Virus record (IMG/VR): IMGVR_UViG_3300028833_000073
Span: 1 to 64,000 of that record
Source of the DNA: a virus
Lineage: Duplodnaviria; Caudoviricetes
DNA length: 64,000 nucleotides
Direction: 5' to 3' (one strand)
Numbering within the stretch: position 1 is the stretch's first letter; the number at the start of each line of letters is the position of its first letter. Of this stretch, positions 5,244 to 34,837 are shown piece by piece. The notes under the pieces are model-generated. The model did not search any database. It saw nothing but the letters and a program-made list of their open reading frames with translations, and was not told the DNA's origin. The translations under genes were made by a program, and so were the position numbers.

Positions 5244-6653
5244 AAGCATCATTAGTGGTTCCATCTCTTGAGCGTCTTTCTTAGTATGACACTTATCACA
5301 TTCAACCTCAGGATACTGGTAAGTAACACGAGGAGTATCAGCACCATACTTAGAAACATACTGAGAGATCTCATAACGAAGATAAGAATACTCATCAGCA
5401 TCAAGAGAGTTAAGAATACGGCTATAGATAGCAACCTTCCTCTTAACACTAAGATTATGATTAGTCTCATCTGGCTTAGTATCAATAGGAACTAGCATCT
5501 TAGTATCTTCATCAATCTTGAAGATCTCATCGACATAAAGAAGAGTATCAACAAGATCACTATTGTTATCACGGAAGTCCTTACTAAGAACCCTCTGCTC
5601 AAAGATAATCTTATACAGAGAAGGAATATTGATTGTGCAGCAGTATTCCTTAGACACCTGTAGAAGCTTCTTATTGATAAGATTCTTAGTAGTAGGATCC
5701 TTCTGAATGATCTGTTCCATCCTCTTCTTAACATCATCATTCTTATATACAATCATCTGATCAAACTTCATAGAAGCTAGATAGACATTGTTACACTTCT
5801 CATTATCACAAGTGAAGGATGCATAGTTAGAACCCTTAAAAGTAGATTTAAAGATACAGAAGAATAGATCAGAAAGATCTAGATAAGTGAACTTCTGTAG
5901 CCACTCTTCAAGAGAAGTCTTATTAGCATCAACAACATGATTATGGATGATTTCAAAGGTATGTACCTGGTCAATAAGATCATTGTTAGATGTTTCAGTG
6001 GTAATGATCTGAAGTTCAGGACCACTAAAAGAAGTCATAGCAATAGAACTACCAGAGAAGTAAAGACCCCATGCTCCTACCTTACTTTCACTCATATTGG
6101 TCTTAAAGATCTTACCAATCTGAATAGGAGTAGTAGAGATGCGATAAGATGTAAGGTCAATCTTATCACGATCAATGATAGTCTTCTTATATGAATCCTT
6201 AAGTTCCATGAACCTACGATTAGCTTCTTCTCTTTCCTTCTCAGCTTTACGAGCTTCTTCTTGCTTCTTATAGATTTCATCATCAGTCAATTCAAGATTC
6301 TCTTCACTTAGAAGATCATCTAGAATCTTCTTAGTCTCATCTTCTACTCTCTCTTGTTCCTTCTTAGCTAGGTCTTCACTATCTTCTTTGATAGCATCAT
6401 TAGCAACCTTAAGCTCATCAATATTCTTAGCAGCATTAAGATTCTTATTATCAATCTTATCCTGCTTCATCTTAGCTTCTTCTGCTGCAATCTCAGCATC
6501 AAGTGCATCAATATCAGCCATACTACGCTCATTAGTAACTACCTGAGCAGAAATTTCATTCTGTACATTCTCATCAGGTGCTAGTACATCCTTCTTCTTC
6601 TCTTCAGCACTAGCTTCTTTAATATCCTTAAGATCAAGTGGCTTGTTAGACAT
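5196..6653 (-). CDS. Baseplate-hub/tail assembly chaperone, T4 gp26-like
   Basis: SD AAGGAGG before ATG 6653. Acidic coiled N-terminus, two Cys pairs (CDNEKC, CDKC), in an operon with the gp25-like gene. Confidence 0.55.
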   Translation of the reverse strand: MSNKPLDLKDIKEASAEEKKKDVLAPDENVQNEISAQVVTNERSMADIDALDAEIAAEEAKMKQDKIDNKNLNAAKNIDELKVANDAIKEDSEDLAKKEQERVEDETKKILDDLLSEENLELTDDEIYKKQEEARKAEKEREEANRRFMELKDSYKKTIIDRDKIDLTSYRISTTPIQIGKIFKTNMSESKVGAWGLYFSGSSIAMTSFSGPELQIITTETSNNDLIDQVHTFEIIHNHVVDANKTSLEEWLQKFTYLDLSDLFFCIFKSTFKGSNYASFTCDNEKCNNVYLASMKFDQMIVYKNDDVKKRMEQIIQKDPTTKNLINKKLLQVSKEYCCTINIPSLYKIIFEQRVLSKDFRDNNSDLVDTLLYVDEIFKIDEDTKMLVPIDTKPDETNHNLSVKRKVAIYSRILNSLDADEYSYLRYEISQYVSKYGADTPRVTYQYPEVECDKCHTKKDAQEMEPLMMLFLRSRLGRVLNISES

Positions 6654-8396: not shown

Positions 8397-8486
8397 TATA
8401 GAGGTACCGGTGGTACCTCTATTAATTTTCTATGCCATCTTATCTTTTATTTTTTGATTTACTCAATGATAAGAGGTGAGATATCA

Positions 8487-10832
8487 ATGGCTACTAAGTA
8501 TAAGTGTCCATATTGTGACCATATGAGAATGACTAAAGATGAATTGATTGGTCATATAGATGAAGAGCATAGAGAAATGATTCCAGAAGGATGGTCTGCT
8601 GGAAGACTAGCCTTTAAGATTATATATAAGAAAGATCATGGTACTTGTGTAGTTTGTAAGAGACCTACTGAGTGGAATGATAAGAGATGTAAATATCAAA
8701 GACTATGTGGAGATCCAAACTGTAGAAAAGCATTAAGAGATGCTGCTCTTAAGAATCATATCAAGGTATATAAGTGTAAGACTCTATTAAACTCTCCTAT
8801 ACATCAAGAGAAGATGCTACGGAATAGAAAGATATCTGGAGAGTATAAGTTTAGAGATGGTGGTAAGATAGGATATGTAGGAAGTTATGAGAAGAACTTC
8901 TTAGAGTTTATGGATAAGAGTCTAGATGTAAAGAGTGATGAGATTATAGAACCTGGTCCAGTATTTGAATATGATATGGAAGGAAAGAAACACTTTTGGA
9001 TTACTGACTTTCTATATATTCCATATAATCTAGTGATTGAAGTTAAAGATGGTGGAGATAATCCTAACAAGAGAAATATGCCAATGTATAGAAAGAAAGA
9101 AGCTATGAAAGATAAACTAATTACAGAGAAAGGTACTTATAACTATCTGAAGTTGACCAATAATAACTTTGCTCAGCTATTAGAGATCTTTGCTGTAATG
9201 AGAATGCAAATGATGAATGATGAACCAGAGAATAGAAGAGTAGTAATAAGAGTGAATGAAGATACGGATTTATTGAATGAGGCTGTAGATTCTAAGTATA
9301 CTAGATCATATAAAAATCTAGATGAATTTTGTAAATATATAAAATCACCACAAGAAGTAAGTAATTGGTTTTTTGTAAATAAAGTAAGATGGCCATATGA
9401 TAATTGGGTTAATTTCCATAGAAGACATCTTCCTAAAATAATTAGAAATGAATGGGATGATAGTAGAGGATTATCAATAACATGGCCAGATGAGATTCTT
9501 AGAACCAAAACCGCTATCTGTTTTGATCATGCAGTCTTTATGCATTACTGTTGTGAACGATATGGATATAAAAATGAACTTCTTTCTATCCATATAATAT
9601 TCTCTCATCCTATATATGGTACTATAATGGTAGGACATTGTGTATGCGTCTATGAAATTCCTAAGGAAGGATGGTTCATATTTAATTATTTCGATGATTA
9701 TAATTCTAATCCTGGTCCATTTAATAGTCTACAAGAATCCATAAAAGCTTATCAGAATATATATGTGGATATGGTTCAAGGATTAGAGAAAGGATTTAGA
9801 AAATATAAGATAAAACCAATATTGAAACAGGTTAATACATACATATTCAATGATAAAGACTCTAAGTGGTTAGATGATTACTATAATAAGCAACCTATAT
9901 TCCAAGGAGATTTTGCTATACAATCAGAAGGATTCTTAAAATGGATGAAGACAGCAGATACTGCTAATCCTGGAAGACTATATTGGATTGAAGAGATGAT
10001 AGTAGATAGCAAGCTAGCTAATAAGATTAAGAACCCTATAAATAGATTGAAAAATTTTCTTAAAGAAAATGCTAGTTTATTGAATGAAGCTAGTAGTAAT
10101 AAGAGATTCTGCTTACCTTTAGATCCTAAAGGATTGAAGAATGGGCAATACTTTGTCTGTGCAAATACTCATGTACCGAATGTAGCACTACAGACTGTTC
10201 AGTTAAGTGCATTCTTTTCAGCTATAGTTAGTTTAATATGGGGAGTTGCTTTTATTCCTCAACTAATTTTTGCACTTAAATTTACTACTATGATTAATGC
10301 AGCTACTATAACAGATCAAATCTTTGCTAGAGATTTCATGATTTTAGATAAAGATAGCGTTGATAATTTCTCAGATAGATTATTGAATTATCCTATTAGA
10401 TCAGTAGATGATGGACAAGTAGTAGAGGTAAAGAAGTACCAAATGCCATATGGTAACTGTGTCATTATAAAGCATAGTGATTGTTACTCGTTGTATGCTC
10501 ACATCATAGAAGGTGGAATAAAAGTAAGAGAAGGTCAGAAAATAAAAAGAGGACAAGTGATAGGTCTATGCGGATCTACTGGAAATAGTAGTGCTCCTCA
10601 CTTACACTTTGAAATGACTCTTACTAAACCTGGTGGTGCAATTACTGCTGTTCCTAAACTACTAACTGATTTTGAGAGATTCAATTGTAAAGAATTTTCT
10701 GTAGGAGATATTTATATAGATGGATATAAAGATCCAGATAATTTCATTAAAAAATTATATGATAATGCATCTAAAGGAAACTATAAGACATCTAATGGAG
10801 ATATTCCATCATTCTGTTTTATTAAGAAATAA
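8487..10832 (+). CDS. Multidomain polyprotein: Zn-finger + PD-(D/E)xK nuclease (T4 gp4/TnsA-like), transglutaminase-like domain, M23 peptidase
   Basis: CPYC..H..H; YVGSYEKNFLEFMD and ITDF..VIEVK; ICFDHA..GHCVCVYE; YGNCVIIKH..LYAH..GSTGNSSAPHLHFE. Domains are separated by LLNE-A linkers. Confidence 0.8.
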   Translation: MATKYKCPYCDHMRMTKDELIGHIDEEHREMIPEGWSAGRLAFKIIYKKDHGTCVVCKRPTEWNDKRCKYQRLCGDPNCRKALRDAALKNHIKVYKCKTLLNSPIHQEKMLRNRKISGEYKFRDGGKIGYVGSYEKNFLEFMDKSLDVKSDEIIEPGPVFEYDMEGKKHFWITDFLYIPYNLVIEVKDGGDNPNKRNMPMYRKKEAMKDKLITEKGTYNYLKLTNNNFAQLLEIFAVMRMQMMNDEPENRRVVIRVNEDTDLLNEAVDSKYTRSYKNLDEFCKYIKSPQEVSNWFFVNKVRWPYDNWVNFHRRHLPKIIRNEWDDSRGLSITWPDEILRTKTAICFDHAVFMHYCCERYGYKNELLSIHIIFSHPIYGTIMVGHCVCVYEIPKEGWFIFNYFDDYNSNPGPFNSLQESIKAYQNIYVDMVQGLEKGFRKYKIKPILKQVNTYIFNDKDSKWLDDYYNKQPIFQGDFAIQSEGFLKWMKTADTANPGRLYWIEEMIVDSKLANKIKNPINRLKNFLKENASLLNEASSNKRFCLPLDPKGLKNGQYFVCANTHVPNVALQTVQLSAFFSAIVSLIWGVAFIPQLIFALKFTTMINAATITDQIFARDFMILDKDSVDNFSDRLLNYPIRSVDDGQVVEVKKYQMPYGNCVIIKHSDCYSLYAHIIEGGIKVREGQKIKRGQVIGLCGSTGNSSAPHLHFEMTLTKPGGAITAVPKLLTDFERFNCKEFSVGDIYIDGYKDPDNFIKKLYDNASKGNYKTSNGDIPSFCFIKK

Positions 10833-10835
10833 AGG

Positions 10836-10862
10836 AGAGGTACCATTATGGTACCTCTTTTT
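10836..10862 (+). terminator. Intrinsic terminator, GTAC family
   Basis: AGAGGTACCA-TTA-TGGTACCTCT plus T-run. Confidence 0.8.
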
Positions 10863-10880
10863 CTATATTACTGGAAAAGT

Positions 10881-10920
10881 GTGATCTAAAATAAATATAG
10901 ACATATATTATAGTTGTGCC
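10881..10920 (+). promoter_or_regulatory. Early promoter; 40-bp direct repeat copy 1
   Basis: GTGATCTAAAATAAATATAGACATATATTATAGTTGTGCC; one mismatch to 11398-11437. Confidence 0.8.
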
Positions 10921-10960
10921 ATATAGTAATAATGTTATCATATAGAGGAGGTGAAAACAT

Positions 10961-11002
10961 ATGGCTCGCTTTGATCGCCGCTCGTGCTATCGCCGTCGCT
11001 AA
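10961..11002 (+). CDS. 13-aa Arg-rich leader peptide MARFDRRSCYRRR
   Basis: Strong SD GAGGAGGTG; 6 Arg codons, all CGY; hairpin over the stop codon. Confidence 0.5.
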   Translation: MARFDRRSCYRRR

Positions 11003-11095
11003 TACCAGTGATGGTGAGTCCCAGCTAGAGTATGGGGTTAGGTGAATAACCAGCTAGCGATAATTTCTATGTTACTGTTACAAGGAGGAATTAAA

Positions 11096-11323
11096 ATGAC
11101 AAAGTTTATTCACTGGGTGAGACTCCCAGAGTTTCCGTTTACCCATATAGATGAAGATTTTGAAGTCGATATAGTATTGGATGAAGCATGGGAGGAGGTG
11201 AAAAAGATACTACATCAGCATGGCTTTGCTATGCAAGAACATTTTGATGGTGCTTTTGTTGCGTTTCCCTTCGGGGAGAGCGCAGAAGAGACAACCGAGG
11301 CCTGGGAAGGATGGGAGGTGTAA
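11096..11323 (+). CDS. Small acidic early protein
   Basis: SD AAGGAGG before ATG 11096; GC-richer than the flanks; terminator GGCCCCTC-TTTG-GAGGGGCT at 11331-11350. Confidence 0.75.
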   Translation: MTKFIHWVRLPEFPFTHIDEDFEVDIVLDEAWEEVKKILHQHGFAMQEHFDGAFVAFPFGESAEETTEAWEGWEV

Positions 11324-11397
11324 AAACAATGGCCCCTCTTTGGAGGGGCTTTTAAATTTTGTCAAATTCATTAATTTCTATGATACTGAAGAGATAT

Positions 11398-11437
11398 GTG
11401 ATCTAAAATAAATATAGGCATATATTATAGTTGTGCC
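11398..11437 (+). promoter_or_regulatory. Early promoter; 40-bp direct repeat copy 2
   Basis: GTGATCTAAAATAAATATAGGCATATATTATAGTTGTGCC. Confidence 0.8.
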
Positions 11438-11473
11438 GATAGTAAATAATGTCATCGAAAGGAGAAGATAATT

Positions 11474-11920
11474 ATGATGACTTATGAAGATATTAAGCGC
11501 GAGATGGAGAATGCAACCAGAAGTGATTGGTATCCTGATATCGAACCATACGGGGATATCAAAATTCGCTGGCGCGATGAAGTAAGTGATTATATCGTTG
11601 TCCATAATGGCAACGAAAAAATCATTGAAACATTAGACCTTGTCAATGCTTGTCATGTTGCGGCAAAACTTGCAGAAGAGCAATCTAGCCGTGATTTCAA
11701 TGATCTGTATCATCGCACGGAATTCGACTATTCCCAGTGGACATGGGATGGTTGCTTGAGAGTGGTAGTAGTCGGCCGTATTTACGGTGTATTCGACTAT
11801 CATGACAATGATGGGTTCCCTCCGGATCTTACTGTTCGGAGGTATAATACCATCGAAGAAGCGATCAACGCTTTCAATGAGCGTGTTGACTATTGGAAGG
11901 ATTGCGATATTATAGATTAA
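11474..11920 (+). CDS. Acidic early protein, GC-richer than the genome
   Basis: SD AAAGGAG; frequent CGC/GCG codons; followed by a hairpin at ~11930-11955. Confidence 0.8.
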   Translation: MMTYEDIKREMENATRSDWYPDIEPYGDIKIRWRDEVSDYIVVHNGNEKIIETLDLVNACHVAAKLAEEQSSRDFNDLYHRTEFDYSQWTWDGCLRVVVVGRIYGVFDYHDNDGFPPDLTVRRYNTIEEAINAFNERVDYWKDCDIID

Positions 11921-11987
11921 AAGAAATAAAGGGCTCTGCTTCGGCATCCCTTTTAATTTCCTCAAATCTTTTATTTTTTATCTTAAG

Positions 11988-12021
11988 CAAAACTAAAAAT
12001 AAGCATATATTATAAATGTGG
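11988..12021 (+). promoter_or_regulatory. Early promoter
   Basis: CAAAACTAAAAATAAGCATATATTATAAATGTGG. Confidence 0.75.
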
Positions 12022-12055
12022 TTATAAGAAGATATATGTTTTAAGGAGGTGATAT

Positions 12056-12235
12056 ATGATGGCATTTGAAAAGGCCATGAAGAAAATCAAATTTGTTAAA
12101 AGAGAGGAGAATTATAGCTTCGATGATTACTTAGTAGATATACATACAGGTAAAATAAAAGTAGATGAAAATAATATTGAGTATCATAGAAAGGAAGAAT
12201 CTAATAATGGAAGATTTAGCAATATTCATAATTAA
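12056..12235 (+). CDS. Small hypothetical protein (59 aa)
   Basis: SD AAGGAGGTG; hand translation MMAFEKAMKK...NIHN. Confidence 0.65.
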   Translation: MMAFEKAMKKIKFVKREENYSFDDYLVDIHTGKIKVDENNIEYHRKEESNNGRFSNIHN

Positions 12236-12617
12236 CGTGATATTTTTCTCTGTTATGTTTGGATTCCATTCATTAGCAGACTATCCACTTCAAGGAGAGT
12301 TCTTAGCTAGATATAAATCAGAGAACTTCTTTGTTCTCTTATGCCATTGCTCAATATATGCGTTGGTAGTAACAATGGGGTTCTACATATTACAGAATAT
12401 TACAAAGTGGAATACAGATAGTAGCTATGTGTTTATCTACTTTATACTGTTCATAACTCATGTTGTGATAGATGCTCTTAAGTGTTTCTATAGAGATGAT
12501 TTGAAGAAAGAATATCCGGATTTAGATGATCCTAATAGTGAAGGTCATAAGAAGGATGTGAAAGGATTCTATTATGATCAGGCTGCTCATCTTATTATAA
12601 TTTGGCTTCTTATCTGA
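12207..12617 (+). CDS. DUF3307-family membrane protein
   Basis: HSLADYPLQ, HCSIY, THVVID and DQAAH His motifs with TM helices. Confidence 0.8.
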   Translation: MEDLAIFIINVIFFSVMFGFHSLADYPLQGEFLARYKSENFFVLLCHCSIYALVVTMGFYILQNITKWNTDSSYVFIYFILFITHVVIDALKCFYRDDLKKEYPDLDDPNSEGHKKDVKGFYYDQAAHLIIIWLLI

Positions 12618-12724
12618 ATATATAAAAGAGGATACCTTCATGGTACCTCTTTTTTACTTCTTATATGGCTTATTACCATAAAATAATCAGTAAGTATAAG
12701 TGTTAAAAGAAAGGATGATTAATA

Positions 12725-13150
12725 ATGAAACCCCCTTATGCAATTGTAGAAGGAATAACTATATTTACAGGAGGTAATTTTATTATATTTAATAATAATA
12801 GGCTTAAATCTTATGAGTTAAATATAGATGAAGAAGCTTATAAAGAAGATGATAAAGATTCAATATTTAACTGTGACTCAGTAGATTGTTTCAAAATAGA
12901 AACTCAGAATGTTACATCAGAAGATGTTCAAGCTTTATCAAATACTGTATCGAATCATAAGAATATAGATGGAATGTGGTTATCATATAGCAATGGTATG
13001 ATAAGACAACTGGCAGTACCTTATTGCGATGAAAGGGATTGTAATAATATTGGAAGATTAACATTTAATACAAATACAAAGAAAGATACGTTGAATATAA
13101 AACAAACTAATTGTAAAGATTGTTCATTTAGATGGTATTCTATAATGTAA
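12725..13150 (+). CDS. Hypothetical protein
   Basis: 141-aa ORF with SD, flanked by terminators. Confidence 0.7.
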   Translation: MKPPYAIVEGITIFTGGNFIIFNNNRLKSYELNIDEEAYKEDDKDSIFNCDSVDCFKIETQNVTSEDVQALSNTVSNHKNIDGMWLSYSNGMIRQLAVPYCDERDCNNIGRLTFNTNTKKDTLNIKQTNCKDCSFRWYSIM

Positions 13151-13248
13151 ATTAATTATGGGAGGTACCTTCATGGTACCTCTTTTTATTTCTTATAGAG
13201 ACCTAAGAATAAGATTCTATTCTGATATAAATAAAGGTGATGAATTAA

Positions 13249-13842
13249 ATGAAACATCCAGAAGTAAGAACAGGAAAATCAAATATTAGTGAAATGGGAT
13301 TCTTTCATGTATCATATTCAATAGAACCTACTGAAAATAATATGGTTATATTGAAACCGAAAGTTCCTATGAAGATGTATGCAGACGAAGGTAATATTCC
13401 TAGAATATGTGTGAGTACAAATATAATAGGATGCTTAAAAGGTATAACTGGAAAGCTTACTAAGATACGTTTAGTAATGACATTTGCTAAAGATGTTTTA
13501 GAGCATGAAGAAAGTGATTGTTATCCGTCATATGATTTATGGTTAATAAACCCAAAGATATATGTATGCAATAATAAGATGGCTTATCTTCCTCCTAAGT
13601 TTAAGGATTTTAGAAAGAATAATGAATACTGGTATATTGATGAAACAGTATTTCATTATATAGGGAATATAAACCTTGATGATCTTATAAACAAAAATGT
13701 TTTATCCAGAACTTTAGAAAACGATTGTAGATTTAATTATAAGAGTTCTAAACACTCTTATGATAAATTAACATGGAAAGATTTTAAAGGTAATTTTGAA
13801 CTAGGTTCTGAGAAATGGATCAATAAAGGTTTTATAATATGA
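13249..13842 (+). CDS. Putative ADP-ribosyltransferase-fold protein
   Basis: FFHVS ... LKPKVP ... PRICVSTNIIGCL ... NEYW fits the H / S / E strand pattern of ART-fold phage proteins. Confidence 0.45.
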   Translation: MKHPEVRTGKSNISEMGFFHVSYSIEPTENNMVILKPKVPMKMYADEGNIPRICVSTNIIGCLKGITGKLTKIRLVMTFAKDVLEHEESDCYPSYDLWLINPKIYVCNNKMAYLPPKFKDFRKNNEYWYIDETVFHYIGNINLDDLINKNVLSRTLENDCRFNYKSSKHSYDKLTWKDFKGNFELGSEKWINKGFII

Positions 13843-13921
13843 TTGGAATTAAAAGAGTACCTAGAAAGGTACTCTTTTTATTTCATCCAAAACTGAAGAT
13901 TAAAGATTGGAGTGATACAGA

Positions 13922-16738
13922 ATGAACTCATTTGGAATCTATTTAGAAGGAATGAATAGTCCTGATATAAAATCTCTTAATAAAGAGATGAAGTCATGGG
14001 ACTATGGATATATACACCAAGGAAAGAAGATAACTGGCAAGGATATTCCTAATGATTTTAAAGGATATAAACTTATGGGTCCGACTAAAGTAGAGAAATA
14101 TAAGATAGGTACTTGTTGGGATTATACTTCTTATGAAGATTATTGGTTTAATAAGAATAACATTCCACATCAATGTTGGTATCTTCAAGCTAATCGAGGA
14201 GATAATCATTCTTGGTTATCTTATGAAGAGAATGATAAGATTATAACTTTTGAAGCAAGCTGGAAGAGTTATGCTGGATTACATGAATATGACAATGAAA
14301 AAGAAATGATAAAAGACTATGTTGATAGAAGTATGAAGAGCTGGAAGTCAGAATCAAATGAAGATAAGGTTGGTGGATATTTTGTAGTAAAATTTAATCA
14401 GTTTAGTATAGATGGAATGGATCCATATGATTATATGTATAGGTGTGCTACATCTGGTACTTTTGTAAAAGGAGATAGAAAAGTATATAGTCAGTGGAAG
14501 GATAATAGAGAACCGTTGAAAGAGGATGCTAATATGAACTCATTCGGAATAGATCTAGGAATCAATGAATCTGGATTATTTCATACTGAAATGTATCATG
14601 GGAGTGATATAAAATTATCAGTATTGAAGCCTACTGCATATAATGTGGGCCATAGATTAAAGAAACATACTTGGTCAGTATTCATGTGGCCTACATATGA
14701 ATTAGCATATGATTGGGCTGTATTCAAAGCTGTAAATAATATAATTCGTCCATATCATAGAAAAGGAGAATTACATAGAGCTAGAGGTAATCATAAATCT
14801 ATAGGATTTAATAAGTATAAGTTTATACCTTATCTTTTATACAGTGAAGTAGATAAAGTTAAGGATCTATGCAGAGGTAAGAAGACTTATGTGTATACTG
14901 TTAATTGTCCTATAAATACTAAATTTGGTATTGGTAATAACAATATGCAACCGGAGTATACATATGATGGTGAGCTTAAGATTAAGAAAACAACTACTAT
15001 AACGATAACAGATGAAGTTATAGATCAAGTATTTGATTATGTAGATATGAAAGAATATGATGAAAGAGCAAAATGGATCAATCATCAAAATATAAGAGGT
15101 CCTATAGGATTAATATTCTATCCTAATGAAGAGCTTATGAGTAAATGGGCTTATTCATGTCTTAAGATAGAAACTGGAGAATCTAATTATGGTGATGATC
15201 CTGATGAGATGATGAAAGATTATAGTGAAGAAGATCTTAAGAGACTTAAGCAGAAAGTAAGAGGTATAAAAGAGGAGAATACTATGTTAGAAGCATCTAC
15301 AGATACTAGATTACTTATATCTCAGGACGATATCTATATCAACTTCAATGATTGGAAGACTAAGAAGTCTAATGTTTTATTTGTCATTGGATTATCTGGT
15401 AGTGGTAAGTCCACTCTTTCTAATAAGATGGCAGAAAAGTATCATGCTTATAGAACAGAGACTGATACTATTGCTTTCAAGATAGCTGGTAAGATAAGAG
15501 CTGTTGATAGAGGACATGGAACATGGGAATGGATAGAGAATGCAGATCCTATGGTTGCTAAGTATCTTAGAGCAAAACATTTAGATCCTATGTTTTTATC
15601 TCATCCTAGATTTGATGTATCTAAGACTAAACCTACTAGAGATAAAGAATCAGAAGAGATAATTCAGCAAGAGGTAGATAAGTATATCTATTGGCTCTGC
15701 TATGAACAGAAGGAAAGAGTAGTGATTGAAGGAGGACATGGTGCTGTATGTATTACTAGACATGAAGAGATGTATAGAAAGATGCCTATTATAATTAAGG
15801 GAACATCTATTGCAAAATCTATGTTAAGAAGGACTATGAGAGATATGGATGAACCTAGAGACTTGATACTTAGACCATTCATTCTTCTTAAGCAGTATTC
15901 TAAGATGGTTCCTGAGATGAATATGGTAAGAGCTATTGTTTTAAAGGATAATGACATTGAGTATATTAAAGAGGACACTGTACTACAAGAAGCTAAGAAG
16001 ATGATTGTTAAAGGAAAGATACCAGTATGTAAAGATTTCAAAGAGTTCTGTAGTAAGATATCTGATGCTTCTATGTCAATGAAGTGGTTTATAAAGAACA
16101 ATATACAATGGCCTAAAGGAGATGCTAATAAGTATCCTTTCCATTGGCCAGATGATCTCATTAGAGATAAGATTGGTAATTGCTTTGACCAATCAATCTT
16201 TATGCACTATTTCTTGAAGAAGAAGAGAGTACCACATAAGTTATTCTTAATTTCTTGGGTTGGAGATAGTGGTAGTGCTACTGGACATATCTTACCTGTA
16301 TATGAGAAGAAGGGATATGTATGGATTTGGCTTTATCTGTATCCTGGATATGGACTCATTGGAGGACCATTCAGAGATTATGATGATGCTAAGAAGACAT
16401 TAGATCAATTCTTCTTAGTCTCTGTTAATAAGGCTCTAGGATCTCCTAGTACTCCTTATAGTAGTTACTTAGATGAAGAAGATACAAGCAAGTTTGATAA
16501 CTACTATGGGAATACAGATATTACTCAGGAAGATTATATCATGATGAATCATGGATACAATCTTAAATCTTCTCATATGTTTAGAATCAATATTGCTGGT
16601 CATAGTATCTATAATCCTACCTTTGATCTCTTAAGAACTATAGATGTTTTAAAAGAGCTTTATAGGTTATTCAAGACACAAGATAAGGTTGAGGAGTGCT
16701 ACTTGTTAGAAGATGATGAATTAGAAACTGTTGAGTAA
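13922..16738 (+). CDS. Four-module polyprotein: transglutaminase-like, ART-like, P-loop kinase, transglutaminase-like
   Basis: GTCWDY..NHSW..FEA; MYHGS..YVYTV..PEY; GLSGSGKST..VVIEG; GNCFDQS..GHILPVYE. Glu-linkers lie between the modules. Confidence 0.8.
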   Translation: MNSFGIYLEGMNSPDIKSLNKEMKSWDYGYIHQGKKITGKDIPNDFKGYKLMGPTKVEKYKIGTCWDYTSYEDYWFNKNNIPHQCWYLQANRGDNHSWLSYEENDKIITFEASWKSYAGLHEYDNEKEMIKDYVDRSMKSWKSESNEDKVGGYFVVKFNQFSIDGMDPYDYMYRCATSGTFVKGDRKVYSQWKDNREPLKEDANMNSFGIDLGINESGLFHTEMYHGSDIKLSVLKPTAYNVGHRLKKHTWSVFMWPTYELAYDWAVFKAVNNIIRPYHRKGELHRARGNHKSIGFNKYKFIPYLLYSEVDKVKDLCRGKKTYVYTVNCPINTKFGIGNNNMQPEYTYDGELKIKKTTTITITDEVIDQVFDYVDMKEYDERAKWINHQNIRGPIGLIFYPNEELMSKWAYSCLKIETGESNYGDDPDEMMKDYSEEDLKRLKQKVRGIKEENTMLEASTDTRLLISQDDIYINFNDWKTKKSNVLFVIGLSGSGKSTLSNKMAEKYHAYRTETDTIAFKIAGKIRAVDRGHGTWEWIENADPMVAKYLRAKHLDPMFLSHPRFDVSKTKPTRDKESEEIIQQEVDKYIYWLCYEQKERVVIEGGHGAVCITRHEEMYRKMPIIIKGTSIAKSMLRRTMRDMDEPRDLILRPFILLKQYSKMVPEMNMVRAIVLKDNDIEYIKEDTVLQEAKKMIVKGKIPVCKDFKEFCSKISDASMSMKWFIKNNIQWPKGDANKYPFHWPDDLIRDKIGNCFDQSIFMHYFLKKKRVPHKLFLISWVGDSGSATGHILPVYEKKGYVWIWLYLYPGYGLIGGPFRDYDDAKKTLDQFFLVSVNKALGSPSTPYSSYLDEEDTSKFDNYYGNTDITQEDYIMMNHGYNLKSSHMFRINIAGHSIYNPTFDLLRTIDVLKELYRLFKTQDKVEECYLLEDDELETVE

Positions 16739-16751
16739 AGGAGGAATAACA

Positions 16752-19208
16752 ATGTATGATTATCTTCTTAATGAAGCTAAGTTAAAATCATCTGAAAGAA
16801 CAGATTTTGGTCTTCCTAGTAAGAAGAAGTACCCGATGCCGGACGCCGATCATGTAAGAGCAGCAATAAGGATGTTCAATCATTGTGATCCTGAGGATGA
16901 AGCTGAACTTGCCAGAAACATAAAGAAATATATGAAGAAGTATGGTGTTAATGATATAGAAGTTGGAGAGAATAATAGGTTTAGCAAGTATTATAATAAG
17001 AAAGCTGTTAAAGAAAGTGTACAAGAAGGTGTGCAAGAAAGATACCTTAATAAGAATGATCTAATGTATTTTGCAGCTTTAGATGAATATGAGAAAGAGT
17101 TTAAAAAGGCATTTGGTGAAAATGAATCTTTAGGTAAAAGAAGAAATGAGAATTGGTACGAGATAGGATATCTTCGTATTAAGGATGCTAAAATGGCTAC
17201 TAAATTATTCGATGCTTATAAAGCAAGATTTGAATCAATCTATGGTGCTTTAATAGAAAAGGGATTTAATGTTGTATTTGAAGATGATGATAATGGATAT
17301 ATCATCAGATATAATGCTAATACTTTTGGAGATAATGTGATAAATAACATGAATAATATCTTAAGTGAATCTGCAAAAACTAAGTATACTGATAGATTTG
17401 GTAATGTGAAGTATAAAACAGATTCTAAGTACACTGGAATGGAAACAAATGCTAATGAAAAGATATGGTTGAAGAAAATTCAGATGATATCAAAAGCTAA
17501 TCTAAGAGGAGGTAAACCACAACCAACAATTATCATTGATGGTAAAGACTATAGAGCTAGAACAGATATAATTGTGATTAATTCTAAAGGAGAGATACTT
17601 ATAGATTATGGCAAAGCAAGAGCATTTAACTATTCCTTCCCTGGAGGTGGGATAGATGATCAAAGTGTTCCTATTGCTAAATCTGCTACAAGAGAATGTG
17701 AAGAAGAAGCAATGGTAATACCTAAACATGTAAGATATATGAATATTGCTTGGTTTAGCCAGTTTAATGATCCTCAAATATTCTATGGTGTAATATCATT
17801 TATATGTGTTGCTGAATACGGAAGAACCTTTAAAGGAAAGGTTGCAACAGAGGATAAAGATGAATTTGCAGATAGAGCAAAATGGGTAAAATGGGAAGAT
17901 GCAGGATTACAAGAACCTCATCTATTAGCAATTCAAAGATATTTAGGTATCAATGAATCAGTAGAAGAAACAATAGAAGAATCAGGATGGGTGATTCATA
18001 AGAGAAATAAGAAGTATCATACTTATGAAGATGCTAAGTTTGTATTTGACTCTTTAACTGATCAAGAGAAAGAGTGGACTTGCCATGGTAATTACAAGAA
18101 TACTCCTAATTGTGTACTAAGAAAGTGTGCATATGATAATGGAAGTCCTACTCCTGTAGGATTTGTTGAGTTAGATGATGCTTATAAGATAGAGCAATCT
18201 GATTTCAATAAAGGAAAAGTATGTATCACTATTGCTGTACACTCTCAATGGAGAGGTAAAGGAATAGCTAAAGCTCTAGTTAAGACTGCAGTACACTGGT
18301 TTAAAGAATCTGAATATGAAGTAATGTCATGGAAAGCAGATGAAGATAATAAGGCTAGTATTAAACTAGCTGAGAAGTGTGGGTTTATTCATAACTACTA
18401 TGACAAAAAAATGAAATCAGAATTCTTCTTCATTACTAATGGTAGAAAGATGCAAGAAGCTATAGGAGAAGAATCTAATGATATCTATTTTGAAGAAGAA
18501 CCAGAAACAGATATAGCTTCTATTGCAGAGGAAGTAGAGTCAATGATTCAAGAATTATCTGGTGGTGGTGGACCTATGATTGGTATGGAGATCAATGACC
18601 AATCTGTTACCACTTATAATCCAGGTATGTTCATAATATCATATGGGTCTAAGAAAGATGCTGATCCTAATGATGATATAGCTACTTCTTCAGGTTATGC
18701 TGTTGCCAATGACTTACGTTCTAAGTATATTCTAGTAAAGAGAAAGAATAAGGTAGTAAGAGAAGACTATGTAGAGTTCCTTACAGATAGAAAGATATCA
18801 ATCTATGAATATACTGGAGATGTAAGTAAATGGTATGAGATGCTCAAATCAATAGATGAAGGAAAATCTGATGGTGAATTCTATACGGCTTTAACTGGAA
18901 GAGAATTACTTACAGATGATCAGATCTATTTCGATGAGCATTTCAAGTACTATAATCCATTTAAGACTAAGATTGAGAATGGAATGACTCTTGATCTTAA
19001 TAAGGAATACTCTCTAGTAGAAGGAAGAGAGTTCTTACTTCCTGTGATGGATGATGAGATGTTAAAACTACAAGAAAGAGTCAATAACATTAATCCTAAC
19101 TATACCATCAAGGAAGGACCAAAGGGATATTTCATTGTATCTGAAGCTGAAGGAAAGTGTAGTGCTCTTCCATTGTCTAAACATGACATAGAAGAGTATG
19201 TGAGATGA
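16752..19208 (+). CDS. Polyprotein: DUF6582-like, unknown, Nudix hydrolase, GNAT acetyltransferase, C-terminal unknown domain
   Basis: SD AAGGAGG before ATG 16752. DFGLPSKKKYPMPDADHVRAAI; FPGGGID..ATRECEEEA (Nudix box); VHSQWRGKGIAKAL..NKASIKLAEKCGF (GNAT). Confidence 0.85.
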   Translation: MYDYLLNEAKLKSSERTDFGLPSKKKYPMPDADHVRAAIRMFNHCDPEDEAELARNIKKYMKKYGVNDIEVGENNRFSKYYNKKAVKESVQEGVQERYLNKNDLMYFAALDEYEKEFKKAFGENESLGKRRNENWYEIGYLRIKDAKMATKLFDAYKARFESIYGALIEKGFNVVFEDDDNGYIIRYNANTFGDNVINNMNNILSESAKTKYTDRFGNVKYKTDSKYTGMETNANEKIWLKKIQMISKANLRGGKPQPTIIIDGKDYRARTDIIVINSKGEILIDYGKARAFNYSFPGGGIDDQSVPIAKSATRECEEEAMVIPKHVRYMNIAWFSQFNDPQIFYGVISFICVAEYGRTFKGKVATEDKDEFADRAKWVKWEDAGLQEPHLLAIQRYLGINESVEETIEESGWVIHKRNKKYHTYEDAKFVFDSLTDQEKEWTCHGNYKNTPNCVLRKCAYDNGSPTPVGFVELDDAYKIEQSDFNKGKVCITIAVHSQWRGKGIAKALVKTAVHWFKESEYEVMSWKADEDNKASIKLAEKCGFIHNYYDKKMKSEFFFITNGRKMQEAIGEESNDIYFEEEPETDIASIAEEVESMIQELSGGGGPMIGMEINDQSVTTYNPGMFIISYGSKKDADPNDDIATSSGYAVANDLRSKYILVKRKNKVVREDYVEFLTDRKISIYEYTGDVSKWYEMLKSIDEGKSDGEFYTALTGRELLTDDQIYFDEHFKYYNPFKTKIENGMTLDLNKEYSLVEGREFLLPVMDDEMLKLQERVNNINPNYTIKEGPKGYFIVSEAEGKCSALPLSKHDIEEYVR

Positions 19209-19523: not shown

Positions 19524-19587
19524 TTATATCACAACCTTTCTTATAATCTAGTAAGGTAATGACTAAAAATTAAATGAGGTGATAAAA

Positions 19588-21201
19588 GTGAATAAATTAC
19601 TTGAATCAGTATCAGATCTATTTCTGGTTAAAGATAATAAGATTCATCCATCACTATCAATGATTACTAAAGATAGATGTGAGATGGCAAGAGATTGGGC
19701 TAGAAATAATAAGTTTCCTTTGATAGATCCTGAAGCAAAATGGAATGATATAGATCATACCTATAAGAAGTATCTGTCAATACCTAAGTTCTGGCAGCAT
19801 CGTGTTGATGATGCTTGTATAAGAATATTTAGTATTCCAATGGATGAGTTATATAGAAGAATAAAGAGCTATATTGAGAATGATGGTGTTGTATCAGATA
19901 ATGATACTATAGTTAAGTTCTTGAATAAGAATGATGTAGAAGACTATAGAATGACACATGGTAACTATGATACTATTGGAATGGTCATGGAAGTATGTAA
20001 GAACAAATCCTCATTAGGCCCTATAGAAGAAGCTAGATTACTTATGATTGCTGAGAGCTTATCTACTAATACTCCTTCTATAGATCTTGGTATCAATGCT
20101 CCATACTTTACTCCAGATGAGATTAGAGACTATCTAGGAGAAGATAAAGTATTCATAGAAGGCTTTGATACTAAAGAGTGGTTTGAAGCATATGATAGTA
20201 CATTCAATGGCACTTATGACGATAAATACTTTACTATGGGATTCTCTAGAGTAAGACTTCTACAGAAGTTCAATATGGAAGATAAGAATGAAGCCACTAA
20301 GAGAAAGATAGCAGTATTAGGATGGAATCCAGAGATTCCATATAATGAAGAGACTCAAGTAAAAGCAAATGAAAGAATCTATAAGATTGTAAGTGAAAGG
20401 ACTAAGAATATAGACTTAGTTGATCTTAGTCAAATGATTGATAATATGAAGATAGTTGATGAATCTACATTGATTACCATAAATGGATTGAAACCTATCT
20501 TTGTAGTCTTTAAGAGAGATAAGAATAGTATAGTACACTCAATCATATCCAAGGCTACTAATAGCTTCTGGGCACACTCTGCTATATCCTTCGATGTATC
20601 TCTAAAGAAGATGTACTCATTCCAATCTGGAGGATTCTATAGTGAATCTATATATGATTATCCTCCTGGTACTATCATAAATGTAATGTGTTGCTTCGTT
20701 AATGATAATATCTTTACTAAGATGAGAAAGGCTATTGTAGGATTCAGAAGAAATAAGAATAAGACATCTTATAACTTCTCTAATCTTATTAATTGTCTTA
20801 CTAGGAAAGCATCTGAGAATACTAAGTCTATGGTATGTTCTGGGTTCACTGATTTCATTCTTAAGATAGGCGATATATCTCCTACTAAGAAATCATTCTC
20901 CACTATACATCCAGGAAGACTTAAGAGAGCTATTACTAGTGATAGACGTAAGAGATGGTATAATCTCTTTAAGGGAGACTACAAGGACTATAGTTCTAAT
21001 AAGATAAAGGTATACTTATCAAATGTAGCAGCAGAACATATCGGAGAAGAGACAGTAGATGATATGATCAAGAATACTAATAAAGAGATGGATGAGATCT
21101 TTAAGACTATGGTTGAACCCTATATAAATATGATCATTATAAATGATGATACTGATTATGATATGGAAATAGGTAATCAGTATAGTATCAATGATATCTA
21201 A
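19588..21201 (+). CDS. Probable virion protein with C-terminal permuted papain-like (YiiX/YaeF, NlpC/P60) domain
   Basis: IISKATNSFWAHSAI ... YNF ... MVCSGFT (His before Cys). GTG start chosen from SD GAGGTG. LLE-S, VDE-S and GEE-T motifs. Confidence 0.7.
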   Translation: MNKLLESVSDLFLVKDNKIHPSLSMITKDRCEMARDWARNNKFPLIDPEAKWNDIDHTYKKYLSIPKFWQHRVDDACIRIFSIPMDELYRRIKSYIENDGVVSDNDTIVKFLNKNDVEDYRMTHGNYDTIGMVMEVCKNKSSLGPIEEARLLMIAESLSTNTPSIDLGINAPYFTPDEIRDYLGEDKVFIEGFDTKEWFEAYDSTFNGTYDDKYFTMGFSRVRLLQKFNMEDKNEATKRKIAVLGWNPEIPYNEETQVKANERIYKIVSERTKNIDLVDLSQMIDNMKIVDESTLITINGLKPIFVVFKRDKNSIVHSIISKATNSFWAHSAISFDVSLKKMYSFQSGGFYSESIYDYPPGTIINVMCCFVNDNIFTKMRKAIVGFRRNKNKTSYNFSNLINCLTRKASENTKSMVCSGFTDFILKIGDISPTKKSFSTIHPGRLKRAITSDRRKRWYNLFKGDYKDYSSNKIKVYLSNVAAEHIGEETVDDMIKNTNKEMDEIFKTMVEPYINMIIINDDTDYDMEIGNQYSINDI

Positions 21202-32497: not shown

Positions 32498-33679
32498 TTA
32501 GTCCTCTCTAACACCAGTCTTGATATTACCAAGAATTCTATATAGAGCCTTATATAGAATGGTCTTATCCTGGTTAAATCTATCTTTATATGCATCAAGT
32601 CTAGCGCTGAAAGCAATAGTATGAATAGAAGCAACTTCATTGATCTCATTAGATCTTGCCTTCATATAGTACTCATACTTTCTTGCAGCAGAATCTGACC
32701 CTACATCATATTCTTTATCTTTAACCTTAAACTTACCTTCTTTATCAAGGTTTACAATCTTAGATACTTCCTTAGCAATATCATCATATGCCTTCTCGGC
32801 TTCTTTCTTTCTCTTCTCTAGATCCTTCTTAATACTGTCATAAGTATTGAAACGGGTATAAGCTTCTGTAATATCAGTAGCTTCAAACTCATAGTCTTCT
32901 TTACTAGATTGACCATCTCTGAAAACTTCAAAGAGATCCTTAGAATAATCAGAAGCATCAACTCTAGTATTATCAGTTCTTCCTAGCATATATCCTCTTA
33001 TCTTATCATAGTAATCATCACTTTCTAATGCATTCATATAGTCTTGATATGCTTTATCAATATCAAATCCACTTTCTCCATGCTTCTTAAAGCCTTCATC
33101 AGTATTACCAGTAGCAGGTTTAGTTGTAAATGCAGTATTAAGCTTATTATCCATGATATTAGATAAACCAGTACTTGCACTGATACTAAGCCTACCTGTA
33201 TTACTTGCCACACTATAAATAGCATTCATTGGAGGTACATTTGCACCAGCACCATCATCTATAGTAAACTTAAATACGTTCATATGGAACTTATGGTTCT
33301 CATTAAACTTATTGAAATCCTTCTTATGATCTTTAAGATACTTCTCTCTCTTGATTAGCATATTAATACCTACTAAGAACTTATTCAAAAGAGCTTTAAG
33401 AAAGTCCACTACTTTCTTAATAATCTTCTTAAAGGTATCCATCCAGTCAGAGAAAGATTCAGTAATGAGCATATCATTACCTTCACTCTCACATAAAGCA
33501 CCATAGAAAACTCTATTAGCTTCTAGCATCTCATTGTCTAGATTAGTAAGAAACTCTAGAGCTTCATTCACATATGAGTGATCATGTCTATCTGAGTTAA
33601 TGAAAGACTCATTCAAAGAAATAGCACCTTCTGTTACTACATTGGATGTAGAAGGTGCTAACCTATTAAGATCAAACAT
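32498..33679 (-). CDS. Internal-head paralog family protein
   Basis: ITE-SFSDWMDTFKKIIKKVVDFLKALL; LFEVFRDG. Confidence 0.7.
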   Translation of the reverse strand: MFDLNRLAPSTSNVVTEGAISLNESFINSDRHDHSYVNEALEFLTNLDNEMLEANRVFYGALCESEGNDMLITESFSDWMDTFKKIIKKVVDFLKALLNKFLVGINMLIKREKYLKDHKKDFNKFNENHKFHMNVFKFTIDDGAGANVPPMNAIYSVASNTGRLSISASTGLSNIMDNKLNTAFTTKPATGNTDEGFKKHGESGFDIDKAYQDYMNALESDDYYDKIRGYMLGRTDNTRVDASDYSKDLFEVFRDGQSSKEDYEFEATDITEAYTRFNTYDSIKKDLEKRKKEAEKAYDDIAKEVSKIVNLDKEGKFKVKDKEYDVGSDSAARKYEYYMKARSNEINEVASIHTIAFSARLDAYKDRFNQDKTILYKALYRILGNIKTGVRED

Positions 33680-33695
33680 ATCTTAATCCCTCCAT

Positions 33696-34790
33696 TTATT
33701 TCGGTTCATATTTGTAGTTAGCAATCTTAGCTATGAGAGCTTTATTCTGCTTAGACCTTTCTCTAAGAGCACCTAAAGCTGCACCATTGATTGCTAAGAG
33801 TAATGATTTAGATCTATGTGTCCAAGTAAGAAGGTAATTAACCGTAGACATACGATGACTATGTGCATCCTTACCTTTCTTATCTTTACTTCCAACTTTC
33901 AAAGAGTCTTTATCAATATCTTCTCTTGTCTTATTGTAAAGACTCTTCTGATTATATTCAAGCTGCTTAGAGGCATCATCAATGATTCTCTTAGCAGCTC
34001 TATACATCTCTTGTACTTTCTTTCTAGTGTCTCTAGATGTTTGCATCTCGGTACCAATAGTACCTACATTGATCTTACTATTATCCAATGTAGTTTTATC
34101 TTCTTCTCCATTTCTAAAAGCCTTATATAGATCTTTAATGAAATCTGATTGTGATAATTTAGATGCTTGTACCTTAGGGTTGATAGTATGGACTATGTTT
34201 CCTCTAAGGGTTTCAATAGTTGTTTCCATATCAACCTGAGCTTTACTAGGATCTTGGGTATTCTTGATATGAGTTTCAACCTTACTATCATCAAGATTAT
34301 CCATATCCTTATTACTTCCACCAGGCATATTATTACATAACTGCATAGCAGTTTCAATATTCTTAGTTTCTATAGTAAAGACAAATCCATCAAACTCAAA
34401 GTCCGTTAGATTCTTACCAAATACTTCCTTCTTATACTTCTCTAAGAAGGCTCTATCACTCTTAGTCTGTTTATCAATAAACATCATAAACGACTTAAAT
34501 AGAGAGGATAACTTCTCCCAGATTCTATATAAGAACTTCTTAACGGCAAGAATGAATCCTTGTACACTAGCTTCATTATACACTATATCTTCTTTATATT
34601 CTTCCAAATGAGATAATTCATTAACGTATATCTCTTTTTGTATCATATTGTAGTTCTCTGTCATATCAATGACAGCATCAAGTGCTCCCTCTAGATAATC
34701 TTCTCCTAGATACCAAGGAGATCTATCATATACTAAAGACTCTAATGTTAATTCACCTGTTAGAGTCTGATCGTTTTTGAAGATACCCAT
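33696..34790 (-). CDS. Internal-head paralog family protein
   Basis: MGIF start; YNE-A..VKKFLYRIWEKL; DRAFLEKYKKEV; LYKAFRNG. Confidence 0.75.
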   Translation of the reverse strand: MGIFKNDQTLTGELTLESLVYDRSPWYLGEDYLEGALDAVIDMTENYNMIQKEIYVNELSHLEEYKEDIVYNEASVQGFILAVKKFLYRIWEKLSSLFKSFMMFIDKQTKSDRAFLEKYKKEVFGKNLTDFEFDGFVFTIETKNIETAMQLCNNMPGGSNKDMDNLDDSKVETHIKNTQDPSKAQVDMETTIETLRGNIVHTINPKVQASKLSQSDFIKDLYKAFRNGEEDKTTLDNSKINVGTIGTEMQTSRDTRKKVQEMYRAAKRIIDDASKQLEYNQKSLYNKTREDIDKDSLKVGSKDKKGKDAHSHRMSTVNYLLTWTHRSKSLLLAINGAALGALRERSKQNKALIAKIANYKYEPK

Positions 34791-34837
34791 ATAGGGAATC
34801 CTCCTTTCTTAAGACCCTTAATAAGCCTTTATAGTCA

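Follow-up and report, generated by a model that had tools for sequence, protein, structure and literature searches.

Three long open reading frames (ORFs) between positions 8487 and 19208 of a 64 kb stretch of DNA from an uncultured phage (hereafter the window) encode chains of unrelated enzyme modules, and the joints between the modules carry a short motif in which a hydrophobic residue, any residue and Glu are followed by Ala, Ser or Gly ([ILVM]-x-E-[ASG]). The products were designated P0001 (8487-10832, 781 amino acids, aa), P0002 (13922-16738, 938 aa) and P0003 (16752-19208, 818 aa); all the other P-numbers (P0004 onward) denote relatives of these three proteins. The best explanation, to which a probability of about 0.55 was assigned, is that the three ORFs, and probably also a 540-aa ORF downstream, encode packaged cargo polyproteins that are processed by the prohead protease. 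In the motifs below, an arrow marks the putative cleavage point between P1 (Glu) and P1', and h stands for a hydrophobic residue.

Source phage and search scope

An IMG/VR viral record of 158,305 bp (CheckV completeness 64%) has the window as its first 64 kb, and the G+C content is about 33%. Split multisubunit RNA polymerase subunits are encoded (phrog_2986, 2987, 2962 and 3148 in PHROGs), as are several proteins with "virion structural protein" PHROGs, a topoisomerase II and a Dda-like helicase. Among cultured phages, proteins were closest, at about 30% identity, to those of Listeria phage LPJP1, Staphylococcus phages S6, PALS_2 and DC4, and Bacillus phages AR9, PBS1 and BpSp; because these identities are low, the source phage is, as judged from its proteins, a distant and uncultured member of the AR9/PBS1/S6-like jumbo phages. 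Megablast of positions 8487-19208 against INPHARED gave no match, and a locus search in viral contigs based on P0002 gave no confirmed relative.

Coincidence of the motif with module boundaries

Module boundaries were set without the motif, by all-against-all comparison of 249 relatives obtained from a 5.8-billion-protein collection, and a breakpoint was defined as a local alignment end that stopped inside both partners. Breakpoints piled up at aa 263 and 525 of P0001, at aa 216, 448 and 690-704 of P0002 and at aa 89-119, 204, 410-422 and 545-599 of P0003, in exact coincidence with the motif positions. All nine homology-defined internal boundaries carried at least one [ILVM]-x-E-[ASG], and 11 of the 21 occurrences of this motif fell within ±15 aa of one of them, a zone that takes up 11% of the length (binomial 3.5e-6).

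In 131 non-redundant relatives, motif density was 14.7 per 1000 aa near 548 breakpoints and 5.0 elsewhere (2.9-fold); Fisher p-values from such related sequences are inflated by common ancestry, and the fold-ratios and specificity controls are the robust part. When E at P1 was replaced by D, K, Q or N, the ratio at breakpoints dropped to 0.8-1.1-fold, and [ILVM]xE without A, S or G at P1' reached about 1.2-fold. The phiKZ-type [ASG]xE was only 1.18-fold enriched at breakpoints in the same set and was rejected as the motif of this clade. After correction for composition, the motif occurred at 4.1 times the expected frequency at breakpoints, 1.9 times within modules and 1.4 times in the remaining contig proteome. 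The site logo gave I>V>L>M at P3, an Asn-rich P2 and S>A>G at P1', with extra Glu residues at P6-P8 that account for the "tandem" look of the linkers; a loose regular expression for such tandem sites was dropped as evidence, since it also matches many unrelated contig proteins.

An AlphaFold2 (AF2) model of P0003, built from a 22-sequence alignment, served as a second boundary map that does not depend on the breakpoints; its predicted local distance difference test score (pLDDT) was below 50 at aa 1-24, 86-99, 193-223, 251-254, 401-422, 566-624 and 737-760. These segments make up 22% of the residues and hold 8 of the 11 motif sites of P0003 (p 4e-4). Short leaders of 6-9 aa ending in LxE↓[SAG] were also found at N-termini, in 23% of the non-nuclease family proteins and in 8.5% of control windows.

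The original prediction had described the three ORFs as chains of unrelated modules, and on this Pfam and PHROGs matches, homology breakpoints and low AF2 confidence agree. All the linker motifs that it quoted are present in the translations of P0001-P0003 where it had placed them.

Protease, capsid and virion proteins of the lineage

T4 gp21 cleaves after L/I-X-E, removes N-propeptides of 7-65 residues and carries LIE-9 near its own N-terminus (PMC9026906). A protease of this type (Peptidase_S77, 282-295 aa) was found above the Pfam cut-off in all five related genomes that were tested; these had been chosen among 80 related IMG/VR loci, and their completeness was at least 91% in four cases and 58% in the fifth. 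The same prohead protease is annotated in cultured relatives, and that of DC4 has been seen in virions (PMC10638138; PMC4870245). The N-termini of the clade's proteases read ..AYIINE↓S, ..AYIINE↓G and ..AYIICE↓S, resembling both ..AYLINE↓S of DC4 and LIE-9 of T4 gp21.

With profile PF07068 (T4 Gp23), no match was obtained in the relatives; capsid homologues were found in four related genomes with the DC4 protein as the only successful query, and three sequences were resolved. Two of them (G001 and G004) carried HIMNE↓SSPLG or HIINE↓SSPLG, and the third carried IQQE↓STTLG, in which Glu-Ser is kept and P3 is Gln instead of a hydrophobic residue. These sites align with EILME↓SSMG of DC4, directly before the conserved core and about 107 residues into the protein. 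Since like motifs stand at the protease N-termini and at the capsid propeptide/core junction, the linker motif appears to match the sites at which the prohead protease of the lineage itself would be expected to cut; the motif is of the T4 kind and not of the phiKZ/SPN3US kind. Both T4 gp21 and phiKZ had originally been invoked as precedents: the T4 type, with I, V, L or M at P3, was retained and the phiKZ type was not. The proposed link to a prohead protease was strengthened, as the lineage encodes a T4-type S77 enzyme whose presumed substrates, the capsid protein and the protease itself, bear the like motif.

Two families connect the chains with virion proteins. The protein g237 of Yersinia phage phiR1-37, a homologue of the N-terminal nuclease of P0001, is annotated as a phage structural protein, and such annotations go back to the detection of proteins in virions (PMC4848604). 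In the contig itself, the RNA polymerase beta subunit (78956-85294, outside the window; 2112 aa) has an N-terminal extension of about 1100 aa that includes a GNAT domain and is homologous, over aa 584-993, to parts of DUF6582-GNAT polyproteins; SINE↓G stands at the junction of extension and beta core, where alignments to cultured phages start. The beta homologue g099 of phiR1-37 is listed among the virion structural proteins (PMC4848604), and the DC4 tblastn match to the beta subunit falls, by coordinate reading, in UFVDC4_00067, which has been detected in virions (PMC10638138).

A separate element was noticed in some cargo-family proteins: the N-termini of P0271, P0280 and P0282, and aa ~255-270 of P0379, follow the pattern M..(I/M/I)(K/S/D)E↓AMALAxMNPVVGM, which resembles the predicted start of the mature capsid protein, E↓SSPLGVYNPVVGM, in the capsid homologues of loci L104, L105 and L106. 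It may be a shared prohead-docking element. No E↓SSPLGVYNPVVGM-like element was found in the window's own contig.

Modules and linkers of P0001

P0001 comprises three modules, as follows (window coordinates; + strand):

8487..9221 (+): C2H2 Zn-finger and PD-(D/E)xK-type endonuclease, conserved N-terminal "anchor", aa 1-245
9222..9284 (+): linker 1, ..RRVVIRVNE-DTD-LLNE↓A, with VNE-DTD-LLNE↓A at 9252-9284; breakpoint peak at aa 263
9285..10046 (+): transglutaminase-like (papain-fold) module, aa 267-520
10047..10091 (+): linker 2, LKNFLKE-NAS-LLNE↓A, with LKE-NAS-LLNE↓A at 10059-10091; breakpoint peak at aa 525
10092..10832 (+): hydrophobic segment followed by an M23 metallopeptidase module, aa 536-781

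The nuclease anchor was matched by phrog_15137 (2e-42) and by zf-Di19 of Pfam. In 122 homologues the Zn-finger nuclease occupies the N-terminus and variable cargo (M23, GNAT, Nudix, HAD or kinase) the C-terminal part, and the nuclease stands alone, at about 240 aa, in DC4, BpSp and phiR1-37; the AR9 tblastn match to the nuclease protein spans query aa 6-233 only. The anchors keep catalytic-type motifs, with invariant Cys/His and D..K columns. In the homologues the anchor is followed by a near-universal ..(I/V)x(I/V)(N/H)E element with an invariant Glu, ahead of which the stand-alone nucleases of DC4, BpSp and phiR1-37 terminate, and E258 of linker 1 is invariant in 18 diverse homologues. The nuclease gene is divergent from a baseplate-wedge-like gene, a synteny that is kept from the cultured phages to the window.

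The papain-fold module matched DUF553 of Pfam below the cut-off (E 0.036, 14 bits), and aa 287-494 are paralogous to P0002 aa 704-879 (E 1.6e-12). The codons TTA TTG AAT GAR GCT are common to linkers 1 and 2 (14 of 15 nucleotides identical); linker DNA is otherwise unconserved between junctions. Peptidase_M23 (PF01551) was matched at aa 635-711 (4.5e-21, 75.3 bits, gathering cut-off 28.7), and M23 peptidases are common virion-associated cell-wall hydrolases. Ahead of this domain lies a strongly hydrophobic, transmembrane-like stretch, LSAFFSAIVSLIWGVAFIPQLIFALKF (about aa 572-600, window ~10200-10290), which would suit a membrane-inserting ejection protein. A hairpin built on GAGGTACC-loop-GGTACCTC as its core and followed by a T-run recurs at the flanks of the cargo transcription units (8398-8422, 10836-10858, 12631-12647, 13160-13184 and 13851-13878); it may be a shared terminator or regulatory element and not a set of independent terminators.

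Modules and linkers of P0002

P0002 comprises four modules, as follows:

13922..13948 (+): N-terminal leader MNSFGIYLE↓G, 9 aa; the same leader in P0004 and P0258
13949..14509 (+): module A, aa 10-196, weakly supported as transglutaminase-like
14510..14569 (+): linker 1, EPLKEDAN-MNSFGIDLGINE↓S, with LKE..INE↓S at 14516-14569; breakpoint peak at aa 216
14570..15256 (+): module B, ADP-ribosyltransferase (ART) fold, aa 217-445; AF2 mean pLDDT 79
15257..15292 (+): linker 2, VRGIKE-ENT-MLE↓A, with IKE-ENT-MLE↓A at 15266-15292; breakpoint peak at aa 448
15293..15961 (+): module C, P-loop kinase (AAA_33-like), aa 458-680
15962..15991 (+): linker 3, YIKE-DTV-LQE↓A, with IKE-DTV-LQE↓A at 15965-15991
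15992..16738 (+): module D, transglutaminase-like, aa 691-925, and acidic tail ..VEE-CY-LLE-DDELETVE

An exhaustive HMMER search with P0002 returned 1052 proteins at E <= 1e-3, and each of the four modules was found as a stand-alone protein of 170-310 aa as well as within fusions, the longest of which has 2785 aa. The length of the P0002 leader is in line with the 7-65 aa of T4 N-propeptides (PMC9026906). A leader of the same type recurs within P0002 at aa 205-216, and P0004, which is 97% identical to P0002, begins exactly at the internal Met of EPLKEDAN-MNSFGIDLGINE↓S. Because P0004 starts there and P0002 itself begins with MNSFGIYLE↓G, linker 1 is, on this comparison, the scar of a fusion in which the downstream unit kept its leader.

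Module A occurs as a stand-alone protein of 170-190 aa and in many fusions; DUF553 was matched by 2 of 10 stand-alone homologues, one of them above the cut-off (P0343). Module B was compared exhaustively with the PDB by VIA-align, and the top ~44 rows were almost all ART-fold proteins, at Z values of only 5-8, including Tpt1/KptA, an Rhs ART toxin, Arr, the diphtheria and pertussis toxins and PARPs. It has a conserved H...Y...E pattern (YHGS / YVYT / QPEY), and a feature search of the Atlas gave a weak Arr lead only. As Foldseek against the PDB returned nothing at or below 1e-3 and a sequence profile against the PDB gave chance matches only, the predicted ART assignment was kept at the level of the fold. 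Module C was matched by PF13671 (28.8 bits, cut-off 27, Pfam) and has stand-alone homologues of 230-310 aa. Local alignments end or start at aa 680-704, and P0004 departs from P0002 right after IKED. Module D matched DUF553/Transglut_core clusters among ESM-Atlas structures at TM scores of 0.55-0.61, and its homologue in P0005 matches DUF553 above the cut-off. A conserved GxCxD and a later His are visible in the transglutaminase-like sequences; the three transglutaminase-like assignments in P0001 and P0002 are supported, and are less secure than those of the other modules.

Modules and linkers of P0003 and the downstream ORF

P0003 comprises five modules; the 540-aa ORF is listed with it:

16752..16775 (+): N-terminal leader MYDYLLNE↓A, 8 aa; E8 invariant
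16776..17006 (+): DUF6582 module, aa 9-85 (PF20223, 28.3 bits, cut-off 27.3)
17007..17036 (+): linker VKE↓SVQE↓GVQE; pLDDT <50 at aa 86-99
17037..17351 (+): alpha/beta module without family, aa 96-200; only in P0003, P0013 and P0015
17352..17369 (+): linker NILSE↓S; pLDDT <50 at aa 193-223, alignment starts clustered at aa 191-210
17370..17945 (+): Nudix hydrolase module, aa 207-398 (PF00293, 3.2e-10, 40.6 bits, cut-off 21.1)
17946..17981 (+): linker INE↓SVEE-TIEE↓S; pLDDT <50 at aa 401-422, E405 and E410 invariant
17982..18446 (+): GNAT acetyltransferase module, aa 411-565 (PF00583, 8.8e-16, 58.7 bits, cut-off 20.7)
18447..18623 (+): long acidic linker MQE↓AIGEE↓S...SGGGGP; pLDDT <50 at aa 566-624
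18624..19208 (+): conserved C-terminal module without assigned family, aa 625-818
19579..21201 (+): 540-aa ORF with leader M(IKV)NKLLE↓S; a GAGGTG ribosome-binding site favours GTG at 19588 as start

The ATG at 16752 is preceded by the ribosome-binding site AAAGGAGGT. E8 of the leader aligns with IITE↓A and IIQE↓A, which stand inside the chains of P0012-P0017 after an extra module of about 150 aa. The aa 96-200 module had no Pfam match, and the C-terminal module is also the last module of P0006, P0008, P0009 and P0012-P0015. The 540-aa ORF is homologous to the C-terminal modules of the nuclease-anchored proteins P0170-172, P0187 and P0249; it had no Pfam match and a weak match to the ClpP/crotonase-fold phrog_1128 (2.5e-4, aa 294-431). 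On the grounds of its leader and of this homology, it is a probable fourth cargo gene.

Taken over the three proteins, the nuclease, M23, kinase, DUF6582, Nudix and GNAT modules of the original prediction were recovered by Pfam or PHROGs, the transglutaminase-like modules less firmly, and the ART module as a fold only.

Gain, loss and shuffling of modules in relatives

In collinear relatives of P0003, whole modules were present or absent exactly between hxE↓S sites. P0012, P0014 and P0017 are without the aa 96-200 module and the Nudix module, and ..KE↓SYIEE↓S joins DUF6582 straight to GNAT; P0015 retains an aa 96-200-type module and is without Nudix; in P0012 a second GNAT is inserted within the acidic linker. 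Close relatives spread the modules of P0002 over separate genes, one contig encoding P0258 (443 aa) and then P0007 (626 aa), and another P0004. Orthologues thus gain, lose, split and reorder modules exactly at the linkers (P0012-P0017, P0004, P0258/P0007). In evolutionary terms, these arrangements suggest that linkers arise by fusion of adjacent cargo genes, each with its own leader and cleavage site, which would make a cassette platform.

The extra N-terminal module of about 150 aa in P0007 and P0012-P0017 carries the pattern G(D/E)IWxVNFP...RPC(V/L)V; this looks MazF/PemK-like, but Pfam gave no such match at E <= 0.05 and the assignment is not claimed.

Neighbouring genes and promoter motifs

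Five paralogous genes of about 400 aa (23-37% identity) lie at 32498-39207 on the - strand. Motifs resembling AACA-N6-TA, the AR9-type late promoter, were found 50-100 nt upstream of three of them (34839, 36553 and 37938), and N-terminal hxE[SAG] motifs in two. A related 284-kb phage (L007) has six such paralogues adjoining a nuclease-M23 gene. These proteins may be abundant head-internal proteins. In the whole window, AACANNNNNNTA occurred 26 times, compared with 59 ± 8 expected from shuffles; as it is rarer than in shuffles, the late-promoter motif appears to be counter-selected outside promoters.

An ORF of 7123 aa (54012-75383 of the contig, - strand) runs past the end of the window, and its aa ~5385-5652 resemble parts of nuclease-M23 family proteins.

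Proposed mechanism and alternative explanations

The processing that we favour would proceed as follows. In front of every enzyme module stands a short element ending in hydrophobic-x-Glu, with Ser, Ala or Gly next, which would fit the specificity of a gp21-type protease (Peptidase_S77). The precursors would enter the prohead, possibly addressed by their short N-terminal leaders or by anchors (the Zn-finger nuclease, DUF6582 or the C-terminal module); the prohead protease would cleave the exposed linkers during maturation; and the freed enzymes would remain inside the head and later pass into the cell along with the DNA. Nuclease, transglutaminase-like, M23, ART-fold, P-loop kinase, Nudix and GNAT enzymes would all be released in this way.

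Several points weigh against this explanation. That the chains are packaged, cleaved and injected is what we infer from the modules, sites and relatives described above. The motif is short and occurs within modules at 1.9 times compositional expectation, and some junctions of relatives have D, E or T at P1'. Searches of the contig with the PF03420 profile found no S77 protease, and tblastn with the DC4 protease, major capsid protein and large terminase subunit (TerL) gave no match in it; as the contig is incomplete, this was read as a consequence of incompleteness rather than as true absence, the protease, capsid and terminase genes most likely lying in the missing third of the genome. By tblastn, P0002 and P0003 had no detectable homologue in cultured phages, and a promoter search directly upstream of the three ORFs gave no AACA-N6-TA site. 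In SPN3US, almost all known prohead-protease cuts remove N-terminal propeptides and do not release multiple enzymes (PMC10052503).

As an alternative, the chains may act intact as uncleaved polyvalent proteins, packaged or not, with hxE[SAG] conserved as a good interdomain linker or a preferred recombination joint. The deviating P1' residues of related junctions would agree with this, the 14 of 15 nucleotides shared by the P0001 linkers favour recombination, and N4 virion RNA polymerase and plasmid ArdC/TraC1 are transferred unprocessed (PMC5512222). We consider it unlikely, because enrichment is specific to E at P1 with A, S or G at P1', and neither the D, K, Q and N variants nor overall acidity offers an explanation; the Glu does not vary between junctions that have different flanks and otherwise unconserved DNA; and a like motif stands at the capsid propeptide boundary and the protease N-terminus. 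The same capsid and protease sites, with the fit of Glu at P1 and a hydrophobic P3 to gp21-type cleavage (PMC9026906), also speak against processing by some other protease, not necessarily in the capsid, whether by embedded papain-fold modules in cis or in trans or by a host protease acting on cytoplasmic chains. In favour of such processing, the model already published for polyvalent proteins has embedded peptidases free the domains by autoproteolysis (PMC5512222), the three transglutaminase-like modules adjoin linkers in P0001 and P0002, and no late-type promoter was seen directly upstream of the three ORFs. P0003 and many relatives, however, have the same linkers without a transglutaminase-like module, and no known Glu-specific activity of DUF553 modules was found; processing of this kind is about as improbable as uncleaved chains.

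Still less probable is that the prohead protease cuts the chains mainly for assembly or clearance, so that the nuclease anchor, DUF6582 and the C-terminal module are discarded scaffolding or targeting propeptides and only a subset is delivered. The end modules are indeed constant while the middle modules are swappable, tandem sites within one linker resemble multi-cut propeptides, and the cleavage products of T4 and SPN3US are mostly propeptides and core fragments that leave the head (PMC9026906, PMC10052503). Against it, the nuclease homologue of phiR1-37 is a stand-alone virion protein, and the anchors retain their invariant Cys/His and D..K catalytic-type columns. Processing of packaged cargo by the prohead protease remains the preferred explanation. 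A broader proposal, that an AR9-like uncultured clade possesses an "express-package-process" platform, is more tentative: an hxE↓[SAG] leader would load any enzyme, gene fusion would turn leaders into release sites, and cassettes would swap freely behind carriers and on a virion RNA polymerase subunit.

Relation to known systems

The closest published concepts are polyvalent proteins and the T4 internal proteins. Polyvalent proteins were defined by Iyer, Burroughs, Anand, de Souza and Aravind in 2017, who predicted that such proteins are packaged and injected and that embedded peptidases release the domains by autoproteolysis, so that proteolysis of packaged polyvalent proteins into domains has already been proposed (PMC5512222). 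The same view is repeated in later reviews. Like them, the present chains combine disparate effector enzymes (ART, peptidoglycan hydrolase, nuclease, kinase, peptidase-like) in one phage polypeptide, with three, four and five modules where at least two disparate domains define the class, and in a phage context given by RNA polymerase and virion PHROGs. Polyvalent proteins are predicted to be embedded in the virion and delivered with the DNA; for the present chains, the status of phiR1-37 g237 and g099 as virion proteins is an indirect pointer to packaging. In the model of Iyer and colleagues, release depends on peptidases within the chain (zincin-like MPTase and others) and no linker motif is defined, whereas the hxE↓[SAG] joints fit a prohead protease acting in trans. 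Neither a zincin-type (MPTase-like) peptidase nor the SNF2-methylase and ParB hallmarks had a Pfam or PHROGs match in the three ORFs, although divergent versions can escape sequence searches. The carriers also differ, being here a Zn-finger nuclease, DUF6582 and a novel C-terminal module.

The T4 capsid-targeting sequence (CTS) and gp21 processing are textbook knowledge, and the CTS of the internal proteins is 10 aa long. T4 IPI-III and Alt share with the system proposed here short L/I-x-E leaders that are removed by the prohead protease, ADP-ribosyltransferase cargo and injection with the DNA, and the N-propeptide of Alt is 7 aa long (PMC9026906); the protease family, Peptidase_S77, is the same in the relatives of the window. 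Unlike the chains described here, which have up to five enzymes and internal putative release sites, T4 cargo is single-domain with one N-terminal cut (Alt also has a C-terminal one), and the modules here shuffle among thousands of metagenomic proteins.

The ejection and inner-body proteins of phiKZ-like phages (gp175/gp245; S/A/G-x-E or A-x-E; PMC10052503, PMC5694885) also belong to jumbo phages with multisubunit virion RNA polymerase, Glu-specific cuts, many head-internal proteins and tandem sites in long propeptides, but the P3 residue is small there (A-X-E in SPN3US, PMC10052503) and most substrates lose N-terminal propeptides. MuF-domain effectors of portal-terminase phages (PMC5512222, PMC9503650) likewise join a constant head-associated N-terminal carrier to variable C-terminal enzymes; here the carrier is a Zn-finger PD-(D/E)xK-type nuclease, and the joint of carrier and cargo bears a protease motif with an invariant Glu. 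In the literature searched, no description was found of multi-enzyme chains jointed by prohead-protease sites, or of the AR9-like metagenomic family.

Biological meaning

If the proposed processing is correct, leaders and linkers of the form hydrophobic-x-Glu-Ser/Ala/Gly, together with the carrier modules, would provide a sequence rule for the injected arsenal of unculturable jumbo phages, an arsenal that would include ART, GNAT, Nudix, kinase and nuclease enzymes and would likely be aimed at host take-over and counter-defence. Cleavage in trans by the prohead protease would be a concrete release mechanism for multidomain "polyvalent" proteins, and cargo chains would evolve by the fusion of individually addressed cargo genes. 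T4 capsid targeting, which has been engineered to deliver foreign proteins, would have a natural parallel in this system, and that would make it relevant to the design of phage-based protein delivery. Should the "express-package-process" platform exist in this clade, its packaged effector repertoire would be readable from sequence alone.

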